Origin: a virus
Virus record (IMG/VR): IMGVR_UViG_3300002098_000018
Reading direction: 5' to 3' (one strand)
DNA length: 35,397 nt
Of this stretch, positions 3,362-33,755 are shown piece after piece; the stretch's first letter is position 1, and each line of letters opens with the position of its first letter. The position numbers were made by a program, and so were the translations under genes. A model generated the notes under the pieces. That model saw nothing but the letters and a program-made list of their open reading frames with translations, was not told the origin of the DNA and did not search any database.

Positions 3362-3366
3362 ATGGC

Positions 3367-3396
3367 TTACAATATAACTTAGTAATTTTTTATTAA
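3367..3396 (+). promoter_or_regulatory. Possible sigma70-like promoter (TTACAA-N18-TATTAA) for the kinase cassette
   Basis: Lies in the 58-bp AT-rich gap after ninB. The hexamers are weak. Confidence 0.3.
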
Positions 3397-3419
3397 CTTT
3401 TTCTTGCAAGGAAAAAATC

Positions 3420-3635
3420 ATGGGTAAAATGGATTCATCAAAAGGTATTCCGCTAAAGACTGGCGATAAGCTACCAAAAGGCGCAACTGCATCTGATATG
3501 ACTGGCGAACGCCGCGAAGCATTAAAAGGTGGCGTAGCACAAGGTAAAGAGGACAGCGTTGGTAAAGACGGCGAATTCAATACTGGCAAGACAGCTGGTA
3601 TCTGTTACGAGCACAAACGCGAAAACTATCGTTAA
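3420..3635 (+). CDS. Lys/Gly-rich small protein (71 aa), probably disordered
   Basis: AAGGA lies 7 nt upstream of the ATG. The stop at 3633-3635 abuts the ATG of the kinase gene at 3637. Confidence 0.55.
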   Translation: MGKMDSSKGIPLKTGDKLPKGATASDMTGERREALKGGVAQGKEDSVGKDGEFNTGKTAGICYEHKRENYR

Positions 3636-3636
3636 A

Positions 3637-4548
3637 ATGAAGCATAGTTTGTCAAGTTTAGCAGCTGTAGGCCAAAAGCCTATGGCTGCCTTAAATAGCA
3701 TTGCTGATTTAGCAGGCCAAGAGCAGCAGGATCCGCAACAAGATCCGCAGCAGGCGAAAAACGCTATTGAAGCTGCAATGTTTGAACGTCTGGAAAAGAA
3801 TTATCCAGATCTAGTAAAAGAATATTTCGATTTACCAGAATCAAGTAATGGCCGCATATTAAATACAGACGTTGCCAGGGAACTATCGCCAGATTATCGT
3901 GCAGATCGCACTAAATCTGCTGACGTTCACGAGCCGTCAAGTGCATTTATTAAAAAGATCTACGCAGATCGCCTGGAGCATGACACGCCAAAAGGTTTGA
4001 ATAGCGAGATTGTATTTACTGCAGGCGGTACAGGCGCTGGTAAAACAACAGCATTAAACGCATCAAAGAATATTAGCGATCAAGTTAAAAAAGCTGAGAT
4101 GATCTATGACACCAACATGAACAAATTGGAATCGTCAGACAAAAAGATCCAGCAAGCATTAAAAGCTGGTCGTAACGTAAGCATTATGTATACTTATCGC
4201 GATCCTGTAGAGGCATTAACTCAAGGCGCGTTAAGCAGAGCATCAAGAATGGAAAAAGAACTCGGTACAGGCCGCACAGTGCCTATTGACGAGCATCTTA
4301 AAACGCATATTGGTGCAAGAAAAACAGTAGAGCAGCTAATCAATAAATATGCGGATAACGATAAAGTAAAGATCCACGTTATTGACAACTCTCGCGGCCG
4401 TGGTAAAGCAGCATTAAGCTCTATTGATAAGTTACCACAATTAAATGAACACGAAGTAAGAGGAAAATTACATGAAGCCTTGGAATCCGAACGAGCAAGC
4501 GGTAGAATCTCAGATGCAATCTACAGAGGCACAAAAGGGAATCGCTGA
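3637..4548 (+). CDS. Zeta-toxin-like P-loop kinase (303 aa; an alternative SD-preceded TTG start at 3559 would give 329 aa)
   Basis: Walker A AGGTGAGKTT is encoded at 4021-4050. DVARELSPDY...VHEPSSAFIKK and the downstream ...IYDTNM...RNVSIMYTYRDP... are reminiscent of Zeta/PezT-type kinases (by eye). Confidence 0.6.
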   Translation: MKHSLSSLAAVGQKPMAALNSIADLAGQEQQDPQQDPQQAKNAIEAAMFERLEKNYPDLVKEYFDLPESSNGRILNTDVARELSPDYRADRTKSADVHEPSSAFIKKIYADRLEHDTPKGLNSEIVFTAGGTGAGKTTALNASKNISDQVKKAEMIYDTNMNKLESSDKKIQQALKAGRNVSIMYTYRDPVEALTQGALSRASRMEKELGTGRTVPIDEHLKTHIGARKTVEQLINKYADNDKVKIHVIDNSRGRGKAALSSIDKLPQLNEHEVRGKLHEALESERASGRISDAIYRGTKGNR

Positions 4549-4642
4549 GTATAAGAAGGATAGGGAGTTTCAAAAGAACTCTGACGAGATGGCCAGAGCA
4601 ATGGTAATGGCATTAAACAACGCAGTAAAGCAAAACAATTAA
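4472..4642 (+). CDS. Possible small ORF (56 aa) overlapping the 3' end of the kinase gene by 77 nt
   Basis: AGGA lies 7 nt upstream of the ATG. Translation MKPWNPNEQAVESQMQSTEAQKGIAEYKKDREFQKNSDEMARAMVMALNNAVKQNN. It ends just before the hairpin at 4652. Confidence 0.3.
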   Translation: MKPWNPNEQAVESQMQSTEAQKGIAEYKKDREFQKNSDEMARAMVMALNNAVKQNN

Positions 4643-4650
4643 AAGCAAAA

Positions 4651-4680
4651 AGCCCCAGATTCATGGTCTAGGGCCTTTCT
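4651..4680 (+). terminator. Candidate intrinsic terminator closing the kinase cassette
   Basis: GCCCCAGA / TCTAGGGC stem (one mismatch), 7-nt loop, weak CTTTCT tail. An A-tract lies upstream. Confidence 0.4.
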
Positions 4681-4705: not shown

Positions 4706-4873
4706 ATGGCTGATCAGAATTCTAAACCAATGTGTTTAACCTGTCGATTTTTCGTTAATCAGACACCTTATGGCGCTTGCCAACGTTACCCTAGCATTGT
4801 TCAAAAACACGAGATGAGCTGGTGCGGTGAATACGCAGCAGTCGTTATTTCGCTTGTAAAGACTAAAAAATGA
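4706..4873 (+). CDS. Small Cys-rich protein (55 aa; below the track cutoff)
   Basis: MADQNSKPMCLTCRFFVNQTPYGACQRYPSIVQKHEMSWCGEYAAVVISLVKTKK. AAAGGA upstream. ATGA overlap with the next gene at 4870. Confidence 0.55.
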   Translation: MADQNSKPMCLTCRFFVNQTPYGACQRYPSIVQKHEMSWCGEYAAVVISLVKTKK

Positions 4874-5175
4874 TTAAACCATTAGCAGATAAAATCCTGG
4901 TAAAACCAATTGTTCGCGTCAAAAGTAAAATTATTGACATAATTATGGATGAAGCAGACAACATGGGAACAATCGTTGCCGTTGGCCTAGGTAAAAAGAT
5001 TAATGCAACAGAGCGCGGCCCTATGCCAGTAGAAGTCGGACAATTTATCCGCTTTGGCAATATGGGCCATGAATCTAAAGACGAGTATTTAAAATTCCAT
5101 GAATATGAAATTAACAACGAGCGTCATTTAGTAATGAGTTGGCAAGATGTATGTTGGGCGCAAGATGGAAGCTGA
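4870..5175 (+). CDS. Divergent GroES/Cpn10-like co-chaperonin (101 aa)
   Basis: IKPLADKILVKP...GTIVAVGLG...PMPVEVGQFIRFG follows the Cpn10 pattern, but the mobile-loop region is atypical. Confidence 0.6.
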   Translation: MIKPLADKILVKPIVRVKSKIIDIIMDEADNMGTIVAVGLGKKINATERGPMPVEVGQFIRFGNMGHESKDEYLKFHEYEINNERHLVMSWQDVCWAQDGS

Positions 5176-23221: not shown

Positions 23222-25135
23222 ATGGCCGCATTTAACATTGATCCAAACATCTCACTAGGCGTTAAACCGCCTGCAGCTATTGGTATTGGCGATATTATGA
23301 ATATCGCTAGAGGCGCTCAAGCGTATAAGCAAGCGCAGGAAACTAATCCAAACTTAGCTAGAGCCATTGCTGCGCAAGCACAAGAAGCTGAAACTAGCGC
23401 AGAATTAGCTAAACAAACTATGCAGCCTAAAATTCAGCTGCAACAATCTCAAACTGAATTGGCTGGAACGCAATCTCAAAAAGCTAAATTTAATTTTGGC
23501 AATGAGCAAGCTCAAGTTGTTAATGATGAAACCAATGCGTTAATGAATGATCCGCGCATTATGAAAGCTGAAAATACACCAGAAGGCCGTCACGGCGCTT
23601 TATCTGCATTGCTTGAATCTAAAAAACGTGCAATTAAACGTGGCGTTCCAGAGGTATTAGTTGAATCATTAACTGCACCATATATTGCTGCAGCATCAAC
23701 CGATCCAACAACTATTCGTCAAGAGATGTTGAATTCATCTCGAGCTGCATCTGGCGCAACTGCACAAGCAAATCTCAATACTCCGCAACTAACAACCAAT
23801 GCTCGTGGTCAAGCTGTTGTCGCTAATGCTACAACTGGCCAATATGATGTTGTTGGAACTCCAGAAGCTAATCCTCGCAATGCAGCTGGCGAATGGAAAA
23901 CTGACGCACTTGGCCGTCAATATTTTGTACCATATACAAGCACTGGTTTGCCTGGTGCACCACAAGGAATCGGCGAAGCTCCAGCAGAGGCCGCACCAGC
24001 TGCACCAACAGTTATTAGTCGTAATGAAACTGGCGGTGCCAAGGTTGCAGCGGATGTTAATAATCCTGGTGGAATCAAAATTAATGGTAAATTTGCAGAA
24101 TACAAAACACCATCTGCAGGCGTAAGAGCAACACAATCGCTTGTTGGCGAATACTTATCTGGCGAAGGCCCTATGGCTAATGTCAAACCAACAGTAGAAA
24201 ACGTTGTTGGTATGTGGGTAAATGGCAAACCAGAAACAGGTTCTAAAGTAATGGGCGGCGCTTATGTTGCTGCAGTTAAACAAGAACTACAAAATGCTGG
24301 CGTTAAACTTAATGCGGATGGATCTATTCCAGATACGCCTATGGCCGTTGCTGCAGTAACAACAGCTAAAATTAAAATGGAAGCTGGCCCTAATGCGGCT
24401 AAATTCTTAGGTGGTCAACAACCAGCTAAATCAACGTTTGTGCAGCCAACTGAATCACAAACTGCTGAAACCATTAAAGCTAATATCAATACTGGATATA
24501 ATCATTATCAACAATCTGTTGATCAATTAAACAATCCAGATAGCAAAAGCGGACATTTACCAACGCAATTATTTAATAACCAAAATATTCTTAAACTTAT
24601 TAAAGATCCAGAAGTTGATACAGCTCGCATTGCTAATTACTTCTCTGATCCTGTGAAATATAAACTATTGTCAGCTAAAGAACAGGATCTTGCTAAATAT
24701 CTTGAGCAGCGTGTTCAAGGTAAAAATCCAAGCTCTGCAATGGATTTAGAATCTAAACACAAAGCCTACGGCACCACAGCGCTTAAAAAAGAAGCGTTGA
24801 TGGAATTGATCCGTAATGAAACAGGCACGTTGACATCACAAGAACTTCAAGCCAAAGGCCGTATAAGAGCAGCTGGCGATTCATCTAAACCAGATGCTGC
24901 AGCCGTTAATAAATTTGATAATACTTATGCAAATTATGCAAAAGATCCATTGTTAATGAAATATATTGGCATTGTTGGTGAAGGCAAAACAGCGCATCTA
25001 GATAAAAACGATCTAGAGGACATCTCAAAATTATTTGCTCGTTTACCAAAACAAGGCACATCTTACAAAGAAGCTCAAGCGGCGTTGGAATTAAAACGCC
25101 AAGCATTAATTAAGTTAGTTAATGGTGAACAATAA
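23222..25135 (+). CDS. Ejection/internal virion protein 2 (637 aa; positional analog of P22 gp20)
   Basis: Large A/Q-rich protein in the ejection-protein position. Internal NNPGGIKINGKFAEY block. Confidence 0.5.
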   Translation: MAAFNIDPNISLGVKPPAAIGIGDIMNIARGAQAYKQAQETNPNLARAIAAQAQEAETSAELAKQTMQPKIQLQQSQTELAGTQSQKAKFNFGNEQAQVVNDETNALMNDPRIMKAENTPEGRHGALSALLESKKRAIKRGVPEVLVESLTAPYIAAASTDPTTIRQEMLNSSRAASGATAQANLNTPQLTTNARGQAVVANATTGQYDVVGTPEANPRNAAGEWKTDALGRQYFVPYTSTGLPGAPQGIGEAPAEAAPAAPTVISRNETGGAKVAADVNNPGGIKINGKFAEYKTPSAGVRATQSLVGEYLSGEGPMANVKPTVENVVGMWVNGKPETGSKVMGGAYVAAVKQELQNAGVKLNADGSIPDTPMAVAAVTTAKIKMEAGPNAAKFLGGQQPAKSTFVQPTESQTAETIKANINTGYNHYQQSVDQLNNPDSKSGHLPTQLFNNQNILKLIKDPEVDTARIANYFSDPVKYKLLSAKEQDLAKYLEQRVQGKNPSSAMDLESKHKAYGTTALKKEALMELIRNETGTLTSQELQAKGRIRAAGDSSKPDAAAVNKFDNTYANYAKDPLLMKYIGIVGEGKTAHLDKNDLEDISKLFARLPKQGTSYKEAQAALELKRQALIKLVNGEQ

Positions 25136-27204
25136 TGGCAGCTGCACAAAAGAAAGTTACAAATCTTGGTGTTATTCCAGCTGTAGCTGTAGGTAAACAA
25201 GATGATTCAGAGCCACAAGAGATTGATCTAAACGAGCTGGCATCTACATTGCCGCCTGCGCAAGATACAAGCCCTGGCACTGTAGAATACGATCTATCTA
25301 AATTGCATCAAGTTGTTAAGCCTTATAAAGAGCCTAAAAAACTTGGATTGTTAGAATCAATGCAAGGGCCTTATGCTAAAAATGAGCCATTGAAACTTGA
25401 AAAGCAATTTGCATCATTGGCTGATACGGCATTAAATCTGCCTGCAGCCGTTGCAAGTATTGGCACTTATGCTGCTGCAAGGCCATTTACAACACCAGAA
25501 CGCGCTCAAGAGCTATCTGGCAAAGTAAGCTCATACCTTGAAAATCCTATTGGTCAAGCAACTGGCATTACTGAATCACCAGCATATAAAGGTGAAGGCA
25601 GCCGCCAGTTAATGGACTTCATTGGCCAAAATATTCACAAAGGCGCTTCATGGGTAGCTGAAAAAGCAGGAATTCCTGTGCAAGACGTTGAAAATATTGC
25701 CAATTCATTAAGTTTTGCTGCGGTTCCAGAAGCTGTGAAGTTAGGCGTTAAAGGTGTTAATAAAGTAACACCTATTGCAAGCCGAGCAACACAAGCAATC
25801 CAGGATCAATTTGCTGCTCGTAAAGGGCCACAGGAAACTGTTGCATCTGAATACTTGCCTAATATTCCTGGCGAATCAACTGCTGGGCCAATCCATGATT
25901 TACATCCAGCGTTAGCTGCTATTGTTACTGACGCTCAAAAACGTGGCTTGCCAATTAATGCAGAAGCGCTTGCTAGACAAAATGAAGCATTATCGCTTGG
26001 TGTTGATCTTACAGAAGGTCAACGCACACAAGATCCGATGCTTATCTCTAAAGAACGTAACGAGCGCGGAATTAAAGAGCAATTGGTTAATAAGTTTAAC
26101 GAACAAAACCAACAATTAAAAAATGTTGCTGAAAACTTCAAAGCTAAAGTTGGCCCAGAAAATGCAGCTGATAACTATGTAACAAATTCAGAGCATATTT
26201 TGGCATTAACTAAAGATCAAATAGATGCAAACAATAAAATCGCTAAAGAGGCTTATCAAAAACTTGATGAGGCTTCTGGTGGTAAATTGCCTATTGATGG
26301 TAGGGCCGTTGGTAACAATGCGCTAGAAGCATTAAAATCTGCTGACATTGAGGAATATGTACCAGGCACCATTTTAAGCAAGCTCAAGAGCTACGCAGAG
26401 GGCGGCAAAGAGATGAATTTTAATCTTTTTGAAAATTTACGCACTCAACTTGCTAATGAATCACGCAAAGCAGAACGCGCTGGCGATGGCAACACTGTTC
26501 ACGCATTAAGCGTTGTTAGAACTGAATTAGAAAACTTGCCATTAACTAATGAAGCTGGCGGAATTAAAACATTAGCAGATGAAGCTCGATCAGCTTTTCG
26601 CGCTAATCGTCAATTGGAAGCTAACAATCAATTTTATGGCAAAGCAGCTCGCGGCAGTTTGGATTCTGCAAATCTAATTCAATCAACTGTATTCGGTGTT
26701 AAAAATGATTATTTTGGCCATGTAATGGATATAGTTGCAAAAGATCCTGCAGCCAAACAACATCTGGCCCAGGGCACTGTTGACTATATGCTATCTAAAT
26801 CTACAGACGGCAGCGGCAATCTTAATCCTATGAAAATGGCTAAATACATTGATGATCTAGATCGCAATAAACGTTTAGAGCCATTATTCGGTAAAGATGA
26901 AGCAGCGCAGATGAGAAAATATGCTCGCGTATCTCGTTACACTAAATCAGCGCCAGAAGGTTCATTCGTTAATTACTCTAATACAGCGCCAGCTGCTGCA
27001 CAGCTTATTCAACAATATGGCCCTGCTGCTGCGGAAGTTGTTGGCTCTCAATTTGGTTTGCCTGGTGGATCTCAAGCTGCAAGCTGGGTAGGCGAAAAAA
27101 TGCAACAACGCGCAACTAAAAAGCAAGCTAAAAAATCAACAAGCCCAGAAGCTGGTATTGTTGGCAACAAAATCTCAGAATCATTTAACTTTGGTAAGGA
27201 CTAA
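25135..27204 (+). CDS. Ejection/internal virion protein 3 (689 aa; positional analog of P22 gp16)
   Basis: TAATG overlap with the upstream gene. Large helical A/E/K-rich protein. Assigned by synteny. Confidence 0.5.
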   Translation: MAAAQKKVTNLGVIPAVAVGKQDDSEPQEIDLNELASTLPPAQDTSPGTVEYDLSKLHQVVKPYKEPKKLGLLESMQGPYAKNEPLKLEKQFASLADTALNLPAAVASIGTYAAARPFTTPERAQELSGKVSSYLENPIGQATGITESPAYKGEGSRQLMDFIGQNIHKGASWVAEKAGIPVQDVENIANSLSFAAVPEAVKLGVKGVNKVTPIASRATQAIQDQFAARKGPQETVASEYLPNIPGESTAGPIHDLHPALAAIVTDAQKRGLPINAEALARQNEALSLGVDLTEGQRTQDPMLISKERNERGIKEQLVNKFNEQNQQLKNVAENFKAKVGPENAADNYVTNSEHILALTKDQIDANNKIAKEAYQKLDEASGGKLPIDGRAVGNNALEALKSADIEEYVPGTILSKLKSYAEGGKEMNFNLFENLRTQLANESRKAERAGDGNTVHALSVVRTELENLPLTNEAGGIKTLADEARSAFRANRQLEANNQFYGKAARGSLDSANLIQSTVFGVKNDYFGHVMDIVAKDPAAKQHLAQGTVDYMLSKSTDGSGNLNPMKMAKYIDDLDRNKRLEPLFGKDEAAQMRKYARVSRYTKSAPEGSFVNYSNTAPAAAQLIQQYGPAAAEVVGSQFGLPGGSQAASWVGEKMQQRATKKQAKKSTSPEAGIVGNKISESFNFGKD

Positions 27205-27445: not shown

Positions 27446-28207
27446 ATGTCAGTTAATTTATCACCTGTAGGAAACGCAGCGCAGTTTTTAACGGCAACAG
27501 GTATTCCGTTGGCTGGCGGTAAGTTATACACTTATCAAGCTGGATCATCTACACCGTTTACAACTTACACAGACGTTGATGGTCACATTGCTAATACTAA
27601 TCCTATTATTTTAAATGCTGACGGCCGCTTGCCTGCAGAGGTTTGGCTATCAGCTGGTTATAGTTATAAATTTGTGCTTAAAGATGCAAGCGATGTATTA
27701 ATTGCAACGTATGACAATCTTTATGGAATTATTGGCACTATTCCAGCAGTAACAGCAATTCCAGCTGGCATTATTACTTTATGGTCTGGCGCAATTGGAT
27801 CTGTTCCTAGTGGCTGGAATCTTTGTGACGGCACTAATGGTACTCCAGATTTACGCGATCGTTTTATTGTTGGCGCTGGTAACAATTATGCAGTAGCTGC
27901 AATTGGCGGTACTGCGGACGCAATTGTTGTTTCGCATACTCACACCGCAACAGTAACGGATCCAAGCCATTACCACATGACAGATGGCACCAATGGCGGC
28001 AATAAAACTGTTGTGTTTTTAGGTACAGATGGGCCATTTGATTATACTTCAACCCATGCAAATCCTAATGATGCTGATTATATTACTGGATCAAAAACTG
28101 GTACTGCATCAACCGGCATTACTGTTGCAAACCAATCAACCGGTACAAGCGGCACTGGCCAAAACTTGCCACCTTACTATGCTTTAGCGTATATTCAAAA
28201 ACTATGA
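27446..28207 (+). CDS. Short tail fibre with a phage tail-collar domain
   Basis: GIITLWSGAIGSVPSGWNLCDGTNGTPDLRDRFIVGAG is the Collar-domain signature. N-terminus GGKLYTYQAGSSTPFTTYTD...NTNPIILNADGR is typical of fibre/spike N-termini. Confidence 0.8.
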   Translation: MSVNLSPVGNAAQFLTATGIPLAGGKLYTYQAGSSTPFTTYTDVDGHIANTNPIILNADGRLPAEVWLSAGYSYKFVLKDASDVLIATYDNLYGIIGTIPAVTAIPAGIITLWSGAIGSVPSGWNLCDGTNGTPDLRDRFIVGAGNNYAVAAIGGTADAIVVSHTHTATVTDPSHYHMTDGTNGGNKTVVFLGTDGPFDYTSTHANPNDADYITGSKTGTASTGITVANQSTGTSGTGQNLPPYYALAYIQKL

Positions 28208-28620
28208 TAAATAGCAAAAGCCTGGATGATTTGCATCCAAAAGTAAAAGCGTTAGCGTTAGAGTTTCAAAAAGCCTGTGCTGAAAAAGGCATGGATATTT
28301 TAATCTACAGCACTTATAGAGATGGTGAAGCGCAAAACAAACTTTATGCACAGGGCCGCACAGAAAAAGGCAACATCGTTACCAATGCTCGTGCTGGTGA
28401 ATCTATGCACAATTATCATCTTGCTTTTGATTGGGTTCCTATGCTTCATGGAAAGGCCCTTTGGAATGATCATGTTGCTTATGCGACTTGTGGCAAGATA
28501 GCAGAGGATCTTGGTTTAGAATGGGCTGGCAGATGGTCTGGTAAGTTAAAGGAAACCGCACACTGTCAATTTACTGGCGGTTTATCATTACATGATTTAC
28601 AAAAAGGAAAAACACTATGA
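28204..28620 (+). CDS. Endolysin, peptidase M15 family (L-alanyl-D-glutamate / D-Ala-D-Ala peptidase type)
   Basis: STYRDGEAQNKLYAQGRT...VTNARAGESMHNYHLAFD...LGLEWAGRW...ETAHCQ (H..D...H zinc ligands). Confidence 0.85.
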   Translation: MINSKSLDDLHPKVKALALEFQKACAEKGMDILIYSTYRDGEAQNKLYAQGRTEKGNIVTNARAGESMHNYHLAFDWVPMLHGKALWNDHVAYATCGKIAEDLGLEWAGRWSGKLKETAHCQFTGGLSLHDLQKGKTL

Positions 28621-32917: not shown

Positions 32918-33457
32918 TTATTTAATATCATTTAAAGCGTATCTAACAACATCACACCAGGCGCTATTAAACAAACCGTTTTTATACATCTCAACAGTCG
33001 GGATTGGTTCGCCGCACATAGTGCCATATTGCTGCTGCAAACCGTCTAATGCCTGCTGGATCATGGCATCGCTTAACTCGCGATTAGTAAATAAGTATTT
33101 TGTACCACCAAACGCATCGTTCCAGCTGTTGTTGTAATATTCGTAGCTGTCTGTCATGCCATCAAATCTGCCGTATTCGTATTTGCCGATCACCGCTTCA
33201 ACTTGATTAACAGTAGGGCCATCAGTCCAACGCACTTTTACGCTGTCACCCATGCTGTATTGATCGCTAGTGACGCTGAATTTAACACCAGGAAACGCAG
33301 CTCTTAATTCAACACGAATATTCTTTGCTGCAATCACACAATTGTTGCCTGGTACAAGATTAGGATATTGAGCCTGTAAATCTACAACCGCAACATCCCT
33401 AGCGGCTCGCGCCGCCTGGTAGTCGTTAAAAGCATTTACCACGTTTTGAATTTCCAT
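32918..33457 (-). CDS. Hypothetical early protein (179 aa), possibly related to LPD29-type polyvalent-protein domains
   Basis: ATG at 33457. IRVELRAAFPGVKFSVTSDQYSMGDSVKVRWTDGPTVNQVEAVIGKYEYGRFDGMTDSYEYY resembles a domain I recall from polyvalent proteins of plasmids and phages (unverified). Confidence 0.55.
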   Translation of the reverse strand: MEIQNVVNAFNDYQAARAARDVAVVDLQAQYPNLVPGNNCVIAAKNIRVELRAAFPGVKFSVTSDQYSMGDSVKVRWTDGPTVNQVEAVIGKYEYGRFDGMTDSYEYYNNSWNDAFGGTKYLFTNRELSDAMIQQALDGLQQQYGTMCGEPIPTVEMYKNGLFNSAWCDVVRYALNDIK

Positions 33458-33479
33458 TTTATTTCCCTTTCGTTTCCTA

Positions 33480-33755
33480 TTAATTTGCAAACACAATACT
33501 GCCAGTGTCGTACCATTCCCAGTAACCACCATTTTCAGTGGCCCAGTTTTCTAATGCTGGGTTAATCCAGCTATGGCCACGTTCACCATAATAATCAGCA
33601 GCATTATCACCGTACTCAGCACTAACAAACAACATCCCATCACGAACAAAACCATGCGGATCACGCATTACTGAAACAAACTCACGTTCTGCGCGATTGT
33701 AAACAAGACATTCTAATGCTGGCAAAGTCGCTACTAAGTTTTCTAAGTTTTGCAT
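33480..33755 (-). CDS. First leftward early gene, hypothetical (91 aa)
   Basis: Preceded by AAAAGGAAATAAA. The YGDNAADYYGERGHSWINPALENWATENGGYWEWYD block matches no function I know. Confidence 0.6.
   Translation of the reverse strand: MQNLENLVATLPALECLVYNRAEREFVSVMRDPHGFVRDGMLFVSAEYGDNAADYYGERGHSWINPALENWATENGGYWEWYDTGSIVFAN

Follow-up and report, generated by a model that had tools for sequence, protein, structure and literature searches.

The 35,397-nucleotide stretch of DNA analyzed here (IMG/VR record IMGVR_UViG_3300002098_000018; referred to below, at its full length, as the window) comes from a freshwater, P22-like phage that stands in GenBank as an uncultured member of the Caudovirales (UFOVP194). 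Just upstream of its terminase genes it carries two overlapping genes, one for a 303-residue P-loop kinase of the zeta-toxin family and the other, ORF56, a 56-codon open reading frame (ORF) that overprints the 3' end of the kinase gene in the +1 frame. With moderate confidence, we take the kinase to be an accessory, toxin-type enzyme and ORF56 to encode its cognate inhibitor or an immunity protein. Kinases of the zeta family have been studied extensively as bacterial toxins; to our knowledge, those borne by phages have so far appeared only in surveys of domains, and not one of them has been characterized. A preliminary description of the window had picked out positions 3362–4680 as a self-contained, three-gene cassette built around such a kinase, and the ORFs that it listed (3420–3635, 3637–4548, and 4472–4642, the last overlapping the kinase by 77 nt), as well as the Walker A motif at 4021–4050, are all present. 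The features of the two-gene module are as follows:

3637..4548, + strand: zeta-family P-loop kinase of the permuted ng_zeta1 type, 303 amino acids (Pfam, structure-database search, AlphaFold2, Foldseek)
3868..3870, + strand: codon of Asp78, the predicted catalytic base, N-terminal to the P-loop (alignment to Asp56 of ng_zeta1)
4021..4050, + strand: Walker A motif (P-loop), AGGTGAGKTT, with the codon of Lys136 at 4042–4044 (sequence read)
4458..4464, + strand: Shine-Dalgarno-like AAGAGGA within the kinase coding sequence, 7 nt 5' of the ORF56 ATG
4472..4642, + strand: ORF56, overprinted gene for a helical protein of 56 amino acids (putative inhibitor or immunity protein), +1 frame with respect to the kinase gene, which it overlaps by 77 nt

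Four kinds of evidence bear on the identity of the kinase. The Pfam family Zeta_toxin (PF06414) matches the 303-residue protein with an E value of 2e-14 (54 bits, against a cut-off of 22.3), and homologues of the kinase bear the same precomputed domain. A sequence search of the Protein Data Bank (PDB) finds only chains of the gonococcal toxin ng_zeta1 as solved relatives (6EPH and 6EPG, 5.7e-9), with an alignment to 6EPH that covers residues 58–302. An AlphaFold2 model based on an alignment of 33 homologues (predicted local distance difference test [pLDDT] 87, predicted template-modeling score [pTM] 0.81) is disordered only at residues 1–39. When this model was compared with the PDB by Foldseek, ng_zeta1 chain 6eph_B came out on top (1e-14, template-modeling [TM] score 0.72), followed by streptococcal zeta, PezT, and AvrRxo1 (4e-5 to 9e-4, TM 0.34–0.40), and all matches with E ≤ 0.001 are structures of these four zeta-family proteins. 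Because Pfam, the PDB sequence search, the AlphaFold2 model, and Foldseek agree, we regard it as close to certain that the protein is a zeta-family kinase of the permuted ng_zeta1 type with its catalytic set intact. The resemblance to Zeta, PezT, and AvrRxo1-type kinases that had been noted from the letters alone is thereby borne out, with ng_zeta1 as the best match. In GenBank, the kinase already bears the label "Zeta toxin domain containing protein" (CAB5212371.1).

The preliminary description had found it odd that the putative catalytic block of the kinase lies N-terminal to the P-loop. In the ng_zeta1 subclass, two sequence blocks are swapped and the P-loop lies nearer the C-terminus; Asp56 of ng_zeta1 is the catalytic base and Lys115 the essential P-loop lysine, the K115A mutant being both inactive and non-toxic (Rocker et al., 2018, PMC5923241). 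In a HMMER alignment, Asp78 of the phage kinase corresponds to Asp56 and Lys136 to Lys115. Asp78 precedes the P-loop Lys136, and the seemingly wrong motif order is therefore no anomaly; it is the signature, indeed the defining permutation, of the ng_zeta1 subclass. Asp78, Lys136, and several arginines are invariant in the 33 homologues, and most residues that do not vary within the family fall in the blocks NTDVARELSPDY, VHEPSSAF, IYDTNM, and YTYRDP. Unlike ng_zeta1, the phage kinase has no C-terminal OB domain, the match ending at residue 270 of 401 in the ng_zeta1 chain; this domain is found in few ng_zeta1 homologues (PMC5923241).

At the 3' end of the kinase gene, an ATG-initiated ORF of 53–77 amino acids is present in the +1 frame in 86 of 86 kinase loci, some of which have a different gene neighborhood, and it overlaps the kinase by 65–116 nt. 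The translations share a distal motif, PAEH[RK]xxR...AExxAxxLNxAV, which in the window reads EYKKDREFQKNSDEMARAMVMALNNAV. Downstream of the kinase stop, pairwise differences between the small ORFs amount to 0.41, 0.35, and 0.60 at codon positions 1, 2, and 3, respectively, and among 70 unique sequences this non-overlapping part contains no in-frame stops in the ORF56 frame versus 125 and 152 in the two other frames; within the overlap, the variable position is the third position of the kinase codons. At the homologous site in 76 of 76 unique genes, the ATG is made from an NAT codon of the kinase (for His, Asn, Tyr, or Asp) followed by a G, that is, the kinase residue varies while the T-ending synonymous codon stays constant. 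In the window, the ATG overlaps the CAT codon of kinase His279 (4471–4473), and the change to CAC is silent for His279 and destroys the ATG, so that a single silent change in the kinase frame suffices to remove the ORF56 start codon. Purine-rich, Shine-Dalgarno-like runs precede the ATG in relatives too, and there the stop codon of the small ORF overlaps the ATG of the next (Cys-rich) gene, leaving no gap. Because the frame is kept in all loci, with a coding signature, an asymmetry of stops, a start kept by synonymous codons, and stop-start coupling, we judge, from sequence comparison, that ORF56 is very probably a real, translated gene. Gene callers mostly omit the small ORF or shorten it to 31–48 amino acids; only 110 called proteins match it, and the exact sequence of the window is called only in Logan and Metaclust. 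An AlphaFold2 model of ORF56 is a single long helix (residues 6–54, pLDDT 83).

A different interpretation of the same pattern is that ORF56 is no separate protein and that ribosomes shifting into the +1 frame close to the kinase stop add the helix (AExxAxxLNxAV) to some of the kinase, giving two isoforms. Such a shift would be compatible with a conserved helix in the +1 frame, with the fact that the conserved part of ORF56 is exactly the part past the kinase stop, and with a purine-rich AAAGGG 5' of that stop in the window. However, it has to be set against the homologous ATG in all 76 unique genes, kept through T-ending codons despite the varying kinase residue, the Shine-Dalgarno-like run before it, a +1 frame that is open well 5' of the stop in all loci, and a position of the kinase stop relative to ORF56 that varies over 65–116 nt, which leaves no fixed shift site. 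Re-pairing from CGC to GCU is moreover expected to be poor, and we consider frameshifting very unlikely.

A search of 5.8 billion proteins returned 477 close relatives of the kinase, many of them on 33–36-kb contigs with the gene order ninB, (DUF5856), a gene of ∼72 amino acids, kinase, small gene, Cpn10, DUF6321, small and large terminase, and P22-type portal. Outside the window's own 90%-identity cluster, the close relatives are at most 66% identical to the window kinase (56–66% among the 120 matches listed). In an exhaustive search of 1.84 billion cluster representatives (50% level), there were 2262 matches, and most of the best ones (50–59% identity over ∼260 residues) are domains inside proteins of 400–4500 amino acids. 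Among 50,697 deposited phage genomes there is one match (MW202577), and among 72,556 deposited plasmids there are two weak ones; the clade is large and almost entirely metagenomic. In MW202577, a siphovirus, the kinase domain ends an 878-amino-acid protein of the structural module that is labeled "thymidylate kinase" (locus L001; MW202577.1, 27283–29919). One homologue from the Joint Genome Institute (JGI) has the same label, and for this kinase family the labels are probably wrong.

The fused proteins tested bear ART-PolyVal, LPD22, ddrB-ParB, InPase, or SLT domains; they are the polyvalent effector proteins known from phages and conjugative elements. Pfam alone, run on ten fused homologues, recognizes only Zeta_toxin, plus SLT once, and finds no MuF domain in these ten proteins or in the window's kinase. 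A zeta-toxin-like kinase has been listed among the domains of polyvalent proteins, with a proposed role in weakening the wall to aid DNA entry (Iyer et al., 2017, PMC5512222). The window kinase is not one domain of a multidomain polypeptide: at 303 amino acids, it consists of the kinase domain and a 39-residue disordered N-terminus.

We looked for a counterpart of ORF56 in the fused kinase genes using a hidden Markov model (HMM) built only from the non-overlapping C-terminal part of the stand-alone ORF56. Run against 6987 six-frame segments from 36 loci, the HMM gave its 12 best matches (E values from 6e-7 to 1.6) all to the +1-frame segment that spans the kinase-domain end. Inspection of 17 fused genes showed that the +1 frame carries a distal hhxxhhxxLN[KR]xh motif and reaches its stop 58–133 nt past the domain, with a Met at the homologous start in 15 of the 17. 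An open stretch of 50 codons or more spans the domain end in the +1 frame of 29/29 fused loci, as compared with 7/29 for the +2 frame. The main frame encodes a low-complexity linker there, after which many of the genes have a conserved C-terminal "...CFLR" module, and no in-frame copy of ORF56 was found inside the large proteins. The genes of large polyvalent-type proteins of 700–3200 amino acids from Proteobacteria and phages have a +1-frame ORF, with a start Met and an "LN" helix motif, over the domain end and the linker after it (e.g., L181:6638–6805 and L183:4419–4592; the loci are L172–L186, L192, L194–L201, L206, L213, L233, L239, L242, and L253), and from the sequences it looks like an embedded, unannotated gene.

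With polyvalent-protein kinase domains as the closest relatives, a classical plasmid-type addiction module becomes a less likely role for the window kinase, and an effector accompanied by an immunity-like partner a more likely one. The kinase and ORF56 could still be a classical, type II-like toxin-antitoxin pair, or an abortive-infection or superinfection-exclusion module, which would stabilize a prophage or episome or kill upon secondary infection, as the epsilon/zeta and PezAT systems do on plasmids and chromosomes. Membership in the zeta family, two tightly coupled genes with a small partner, and a presence/absence polymorphism typical of accessory defense cargo are all in keeping with this interpretation, and the closest solved relative, ng_zeta1, is a plasmid toxin-antitoxin toxin (PMC5923241). 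However, the domains of polyvalent effectors are far closer to the kinase in sequence (50–59% versus ∼20% identity), and the place of the module, a co-directional array beside morphogenesis genes, is neither that of lysogeny genes nor that of a moron with a promoter of its own. Neither an integrase nor a CI-type repressor was found among the larger ORFs of the 35.4-kb contig (those of 90 amino acids or more were scanned). PADLOC gave no match, and scans of the three ORFs of the proposed cassette with PADLOC, NCBIfam, and PHROGs gave nothing meaningful. Taken together, we consider a classical module of this kind unlikely, be it for stabilization or for killing.

What the kinase may phosphorylate is harder to read from ng_zeta1. 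Lys59 and Asn75 give ng_zeta1 its preference for uridine diphosphate (UDP)-N-acetylmuramic acid (UNAM) (PMC5923241); in the HMMER alignment they are replaced by Arg81 and Ser94, both invariant in the homologues, and Arg204 and Arg213 fall 1–2 positions off Arg175 and Arg181 of ng_zeta1 (an offset read from that alignment). With the residues that confer the UNAM preference replaced, ng_zeta1 is no safe guide to the substrate of the phage kinase, and a UDP-sugar substrate, suggested by analogy with all characterized bacterial zeta toxins, is in our estimate a tentative proposal with somewhat less than an even chance. The loss of the substrate-specifying residues also fits a role in counter-defense or metabolic takeover, in which the kinase would phosphorylate nicotinamide adenine dinucleotide (NAD+), like AvrRxo1, or a nucleotide immune signal or its precursor, with ORF56 as a regulator. 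AvrRxo1 is a NAD kinase in the same fold family, and in polyvalent proteins the kinase domain stands beside ART and InPase domains that act on NAD or nucleotides (PMC5512222). However, the structural match to AvrRxo1 is far weaker than that to ng_zeta1 (7e-4, TM 0.37 versus 1e-14, TM 0.72), and an enzyme harmless to its producer has no obvious need for an inseparable partner. We therefore rate counter-defense as quite improbable.

The remaining features of the region lie on either side of the module:

3362..3419, no strand: AT-rich intergenic gap of 58 bp from ninB to the 71-amino-acid gene, outside the kinase module (sequence read)
3420..3635, + strand: backbone gene in the pre-packaging module, encoding UFOVP194_8, a Gly/Lys-rich protein of 71 amino acids
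4647..4679, no strand: hairpin in the 63-nt gap 3' of ORF56, lineage-specific
4706..4873, + strand: gene for a 55-amino-acid Cys-rich protein, a backbone gene downstream of the insertion, overlapping the Cpn10 gene (4870–5175)

The 71-amino-acid gene upstream of the kinase belongs to a family with 705 matches and the motif ASDxxGER..G[VI]AxGKxD..F..G[VI]CYxHxR; neither Pfam nor PHROG has a family for it, and its profile returned no relevant match from the PDB. The family is almost always found just upstream of phage Cpn10 (GroES-like) and terminase genes. At 84 of 84 loci fetched by means of the 71-amino-acid protein (the best 80 IMG/VR loci, with 59–69% identity to the window copy, plus L008–L011), the kinase is absent and Cpn10 comes next, 0–600 bp after the 71-amino-acid gene and often with the Cys-rich ORF in between; a relative with an 80%-identical 71-amino-acid protein has the same arrangement without kinase. 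The gene is thus a real backbone gene of the pre-packaging module and not a partner of the kinase, and of the three-gene synteny that had been proposed, the link between kinase and ORF56 (86/86 loci) stands and that to the 71-amino-acid gene falls.

These loci also bear on whether the region is a three-gene cassette, with 3362–4680 as an autonomous moron and the 71-amino-acid protein as an antitoxin in an epsilon-like position. The upstream position fits the epsilon/zeta gene order, and the 71-amino-acid ORF and the kinase abut (in the window, the stop lies 1 nt 5' of the kinase ATG) or, in relatives, overlap as ATGA. Against this stand the 84 kinase-less loci and the 80%-identical relative, kinase loci in which the 71-amino-acid gene is not the immediate neighbor, a promoter not above chance, and an unconserved hairpin, and we consider the three-gene cassette highly improbable. 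As an antitoxin, the 71-amino-acid ORF was ruled out by synteny, given its pairing with Cpn10 in kinase-less phages; an upstream position alone is no ground for reading it as one, and that its stop abuts the kinase start is a matter of how tightly all genes of the array are packed.

The boundaries of the module point the same way. A promoter of its own had been proposed for the cassette (TTACAA-N18-TATTAA), and this sequence matches the consensus at 7 of 12 positions, goes unreported by a promoter scan, and lies in a region in which promoter-like sites are no more frequent than in shuffled sequences (9 versus 7.4 ± 2.6); we therefore set the proposal aside. The hairpin put forward as the end of the cassette does exist (∼4647–4679; −11.2 kcal/mol, z = −2.3), but it has no T-run on the + strand and is absent at the homologous position in relatives. 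It is terminator-like only on the − strand (T-run GCTTTTTGCTTTTAATT), where there is no gene nearby. The G+C content is 0.39–0.48 across the module and 0.35–0.48 in its flanks, that is, there is no anomaly in composition. At this exact site, between the 71-amino-acid gene and Cpn10, the kinase and ORF56 are missing from relatives whose 71-amino-acid protein is 59–80% identical to that of the window, and because these nearest backbone relatives lack both genes, we take the pair to be optional. Of the autonomous moron, therefore, the presence or absence at one and the same site remains, but not the independence, there being no promoter, conserved terminator, or deviant G+C content; the description that fits best is that of a mobile insertion of two genes into an array whose genes are co-directional and translationally coupled, not that of an autonomous transcription unit.

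The insertion site lies after the 71-amino-acid gene, before the Cys-rich and Cpn10 genes, and just upstream of the terminase genes. The 55-amino-acid Cys-rich ORF has a zinc-ribbon-like CxxC...C...C pattern and overlaps the start of the Cpn10/GroES-like gene by 4 nt, and this gene pair is kept in kinase-bearing and kinase-less phages alike. On the other side, a DUF5856 gene stands just 5' of the ∼72-amino-acid gene in 50 of the 69 evaluable kinase-bearing loci (e.g., L002:3407–3766, L004:3413–3772, and L006:3334–3774); the window has no DUF5856 gene, and ninB is followed directly by the 71-amino-acid gene. Elsewhere, the phage encodes a terminase, a P22-type portal, a coat protein, tail proteins, an endolysin (28204–28620), and recombination and replication genes. 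Two large ORFs at the end of the structural module (23222–25135 and 25135–27204; 637 and 689 amino acids) have no PHROG or Pfam match, and their position suggests ejection or internal virion proteins. At 32918–33532, on the − strand, lies the gene for a stand-alone 204-amino-acid protein with an LPD29 domain ("large polyvalent protein associated domain 29"; 8.7e-25), which is otherwise typical of polyvalent proteins and thus a second polyvalent-protein domain present in this phage as a separate gene; a kinase-less relative also has it (L008:3374–3727). A DNA similarity search of the region against deposited phages gave no match.

Where the kinase begins can be settled from its relatives. A conserved N-terminal motif, MAxPLSxxAAxGQ, begins at the ATG, and in several relatives an in-frame stop lies 0–4 codons upstream of it. 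The alternative TTG start at 3559 that had been suggested for the window is ruled out by these two observations. Residues 1–39 (3637–3753) consist of the conserved motif and a Pro/Gln-rich linker of variable length that is predicted to be disordered, and from its sequence this region looks like a tether or targeting peptide. Between stand-alone forms of the kinase, the N-terminal regions are wholly different, some of them lipoprotein-like, and in fused forms the N-terminal parts are 350–2000 amino acids long. A site ∼1 kb upstream of the large terminase gene is also occupied by other stand-alone forms, which are 350–400 amino acids long and differ in their N-terminal regions. A further set of ∼335-amino-acid stand-alone kinases, 38–40% identical, comes from Binatia, Syntrophobacteraceae, and other metagenome-assembled genomes (L187:88–1089, L188, L189, and L191:5821–6840). 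Their hydrophobic N-termini, one with a lipobox-like LASC, suggest that they may be exported lipoprotein toxins, and the overlapping small ORF is weakly hinted at here as well.

Among known systems, the best match in sequence and structure is to the ng_epsilon1/ng_zeta1 system of conjugative plasmids of Neisseria gonorrhoeae (6EPG/6EPH/6EPI; Rocker et al., 2018, PMC5923241), which shares the permuted order (Asp56/Lys115 versus Asp78/Lys136), the nucleotide-kinase fold, and a small, unrelated protein encoded next to the kinase. It differs in its OB domain, in the UNAM-contacting Lys59 and Asn75 (Arg and Ser in the phage kinase), and in the placement of ng_epsilon1, which is encoded upstream and is not overprinted, whereas the upstream gene of the phage kinase is unlinked to it and the partner lies downstream in the +1 frame; moreover, ng_epsilon1/ng_zeta1 is a plasmid addiction module and the phage kinase an accessory gene. 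The zeta-like kinase domains of polyvalent proteins (PMC5512222) are 50–59% identical and share the small +1-frame ORF at the domain end, and the phage also has LPD29, as a stand-alone protein; unlike them, the phage kinase stands alone at 303 amino acids with a short disordered N-terminus, and the partner ORF does not figure in the published account (PMC5512222). Polymorphic toxin-immunity cassettes of temperate phages, including the MuF type (Jamet et al., 2017, PMC5576092), resemble the module in a C-terminal toxin domain with variable N-terminal regions, a small gene directly 3' of the toxin domain (co-inherited here), and a site beside head and packaging genes. No MuF domain is present here or in the fused proteins tested, the overlap of 65–116 nt is unusual for such cassettes, and the immunity role of ORF56 is putative.

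More distant are streptococcal epsilon/zeta and PezAT (1GVN, 3Q8X, and 2P5T), which share PF06414 and the fold, and whose kinase acts on UDP-sugars and is neutralized by a small helical protein. In these systems, however, the P-loop precedes the catalytic Asp, the antitoxin is an upstream three-helix bundle, and the TM score is only 0.34–0.40. The AvrRxo1-ORF1:ORF2 pair of Xanthomonas (4Z8Q) likewise joins a zeta-like kinase to a small partner, AvrRxo1-ORF2, whose gene lies directly downstream of the kinase gene, and the fold match is significant. It differs in that its TM score is 0.37, the kinase is a type III secreted NAD kinase, and the partner is not overprinted and has no sequence similarity to ORF56.

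From the activity, substrate, and toxicity of the kinase, through binding and inhibition by ORF56, to the time and place at which the kinase acts, we infer a mechanism along the following lines. The kinase would be a toxin-type effector that catalyzes the adenosine triphosphate-dependent phosphorylation of a sugar hydroxyl on a metabolite linked to a nucleotide; a UDP-sugar from which the cell envelope is built is the most plausible one, and its pool in the host would be drained or poisoned. The ORF56 helix would be the cognate inhibitor, of an immunity- or antitoxin-like kind, which would bind the kinase and prevent its action within the producer or before the proper moment, and the overprinting would make toxin and antidote genetically inseparable. 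In every characterized zeta-family kinase, a small inhibitor is encoded adjacent to the kinase, and the folds of the inhibitors are unrelated (PMC5923241). An inhibitor role is proposed for ORF56 because epsilon, PezA, ng_epsilon1, and AvrRxo1-ORF2 all silence their kinases with unrelated folds, and we see the chances for and against it as evenly balanced.

Several observations weigh against a kinase-inhibitor pair. ORF56 resembles no known antitoxin or immunity protein and, searched as a profile and member by member, gives no consistent match in Pfam or the PDB, and an activating or targeting partner would yield a comparative pattern identical to that of an inhibitor. The identity of the kinase to ng_zeta1 is only ∼20%, and Lys59 and Asn75 are among the residues not kept. 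Finally, the HMM matches to the distal motif in fused forms are individually weak (E from 6e-7 to >1); unlike the single matches, their positional enrichment is not weak.

As far as the searched literature shows, two things have not been described: the stand-alone kinase as an optional module of P22-like freshwater phages and the conserved overprinted partner gene, including its occurrence within polyvalent-protein genes. A broader possibility, to which we give somewhat less than an even chance, is that of a self-immunizing cassette: the antidote of a zeta-type kinase toxin would be written into the 3' end of the toxin domain, one frame over, where recombination cannot part the two, and the overprinted pair would be kept from stand-alone phage genes to kinase domains within giant polyvalent proteins of phages and conjugative elements. 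The small gene inside the larger polyvalent gene, over the low-complexity linker, would then be an unannotated class of embedded immunity genes and would allow polyvalent effectors to be produced safely by the donor. If ORF56 is an inhibitor, the arrangement would be a compact route to an inseparable toxin and antidote, and it would suggest how cells tolerate making multi-toxin polyvalent proteins.

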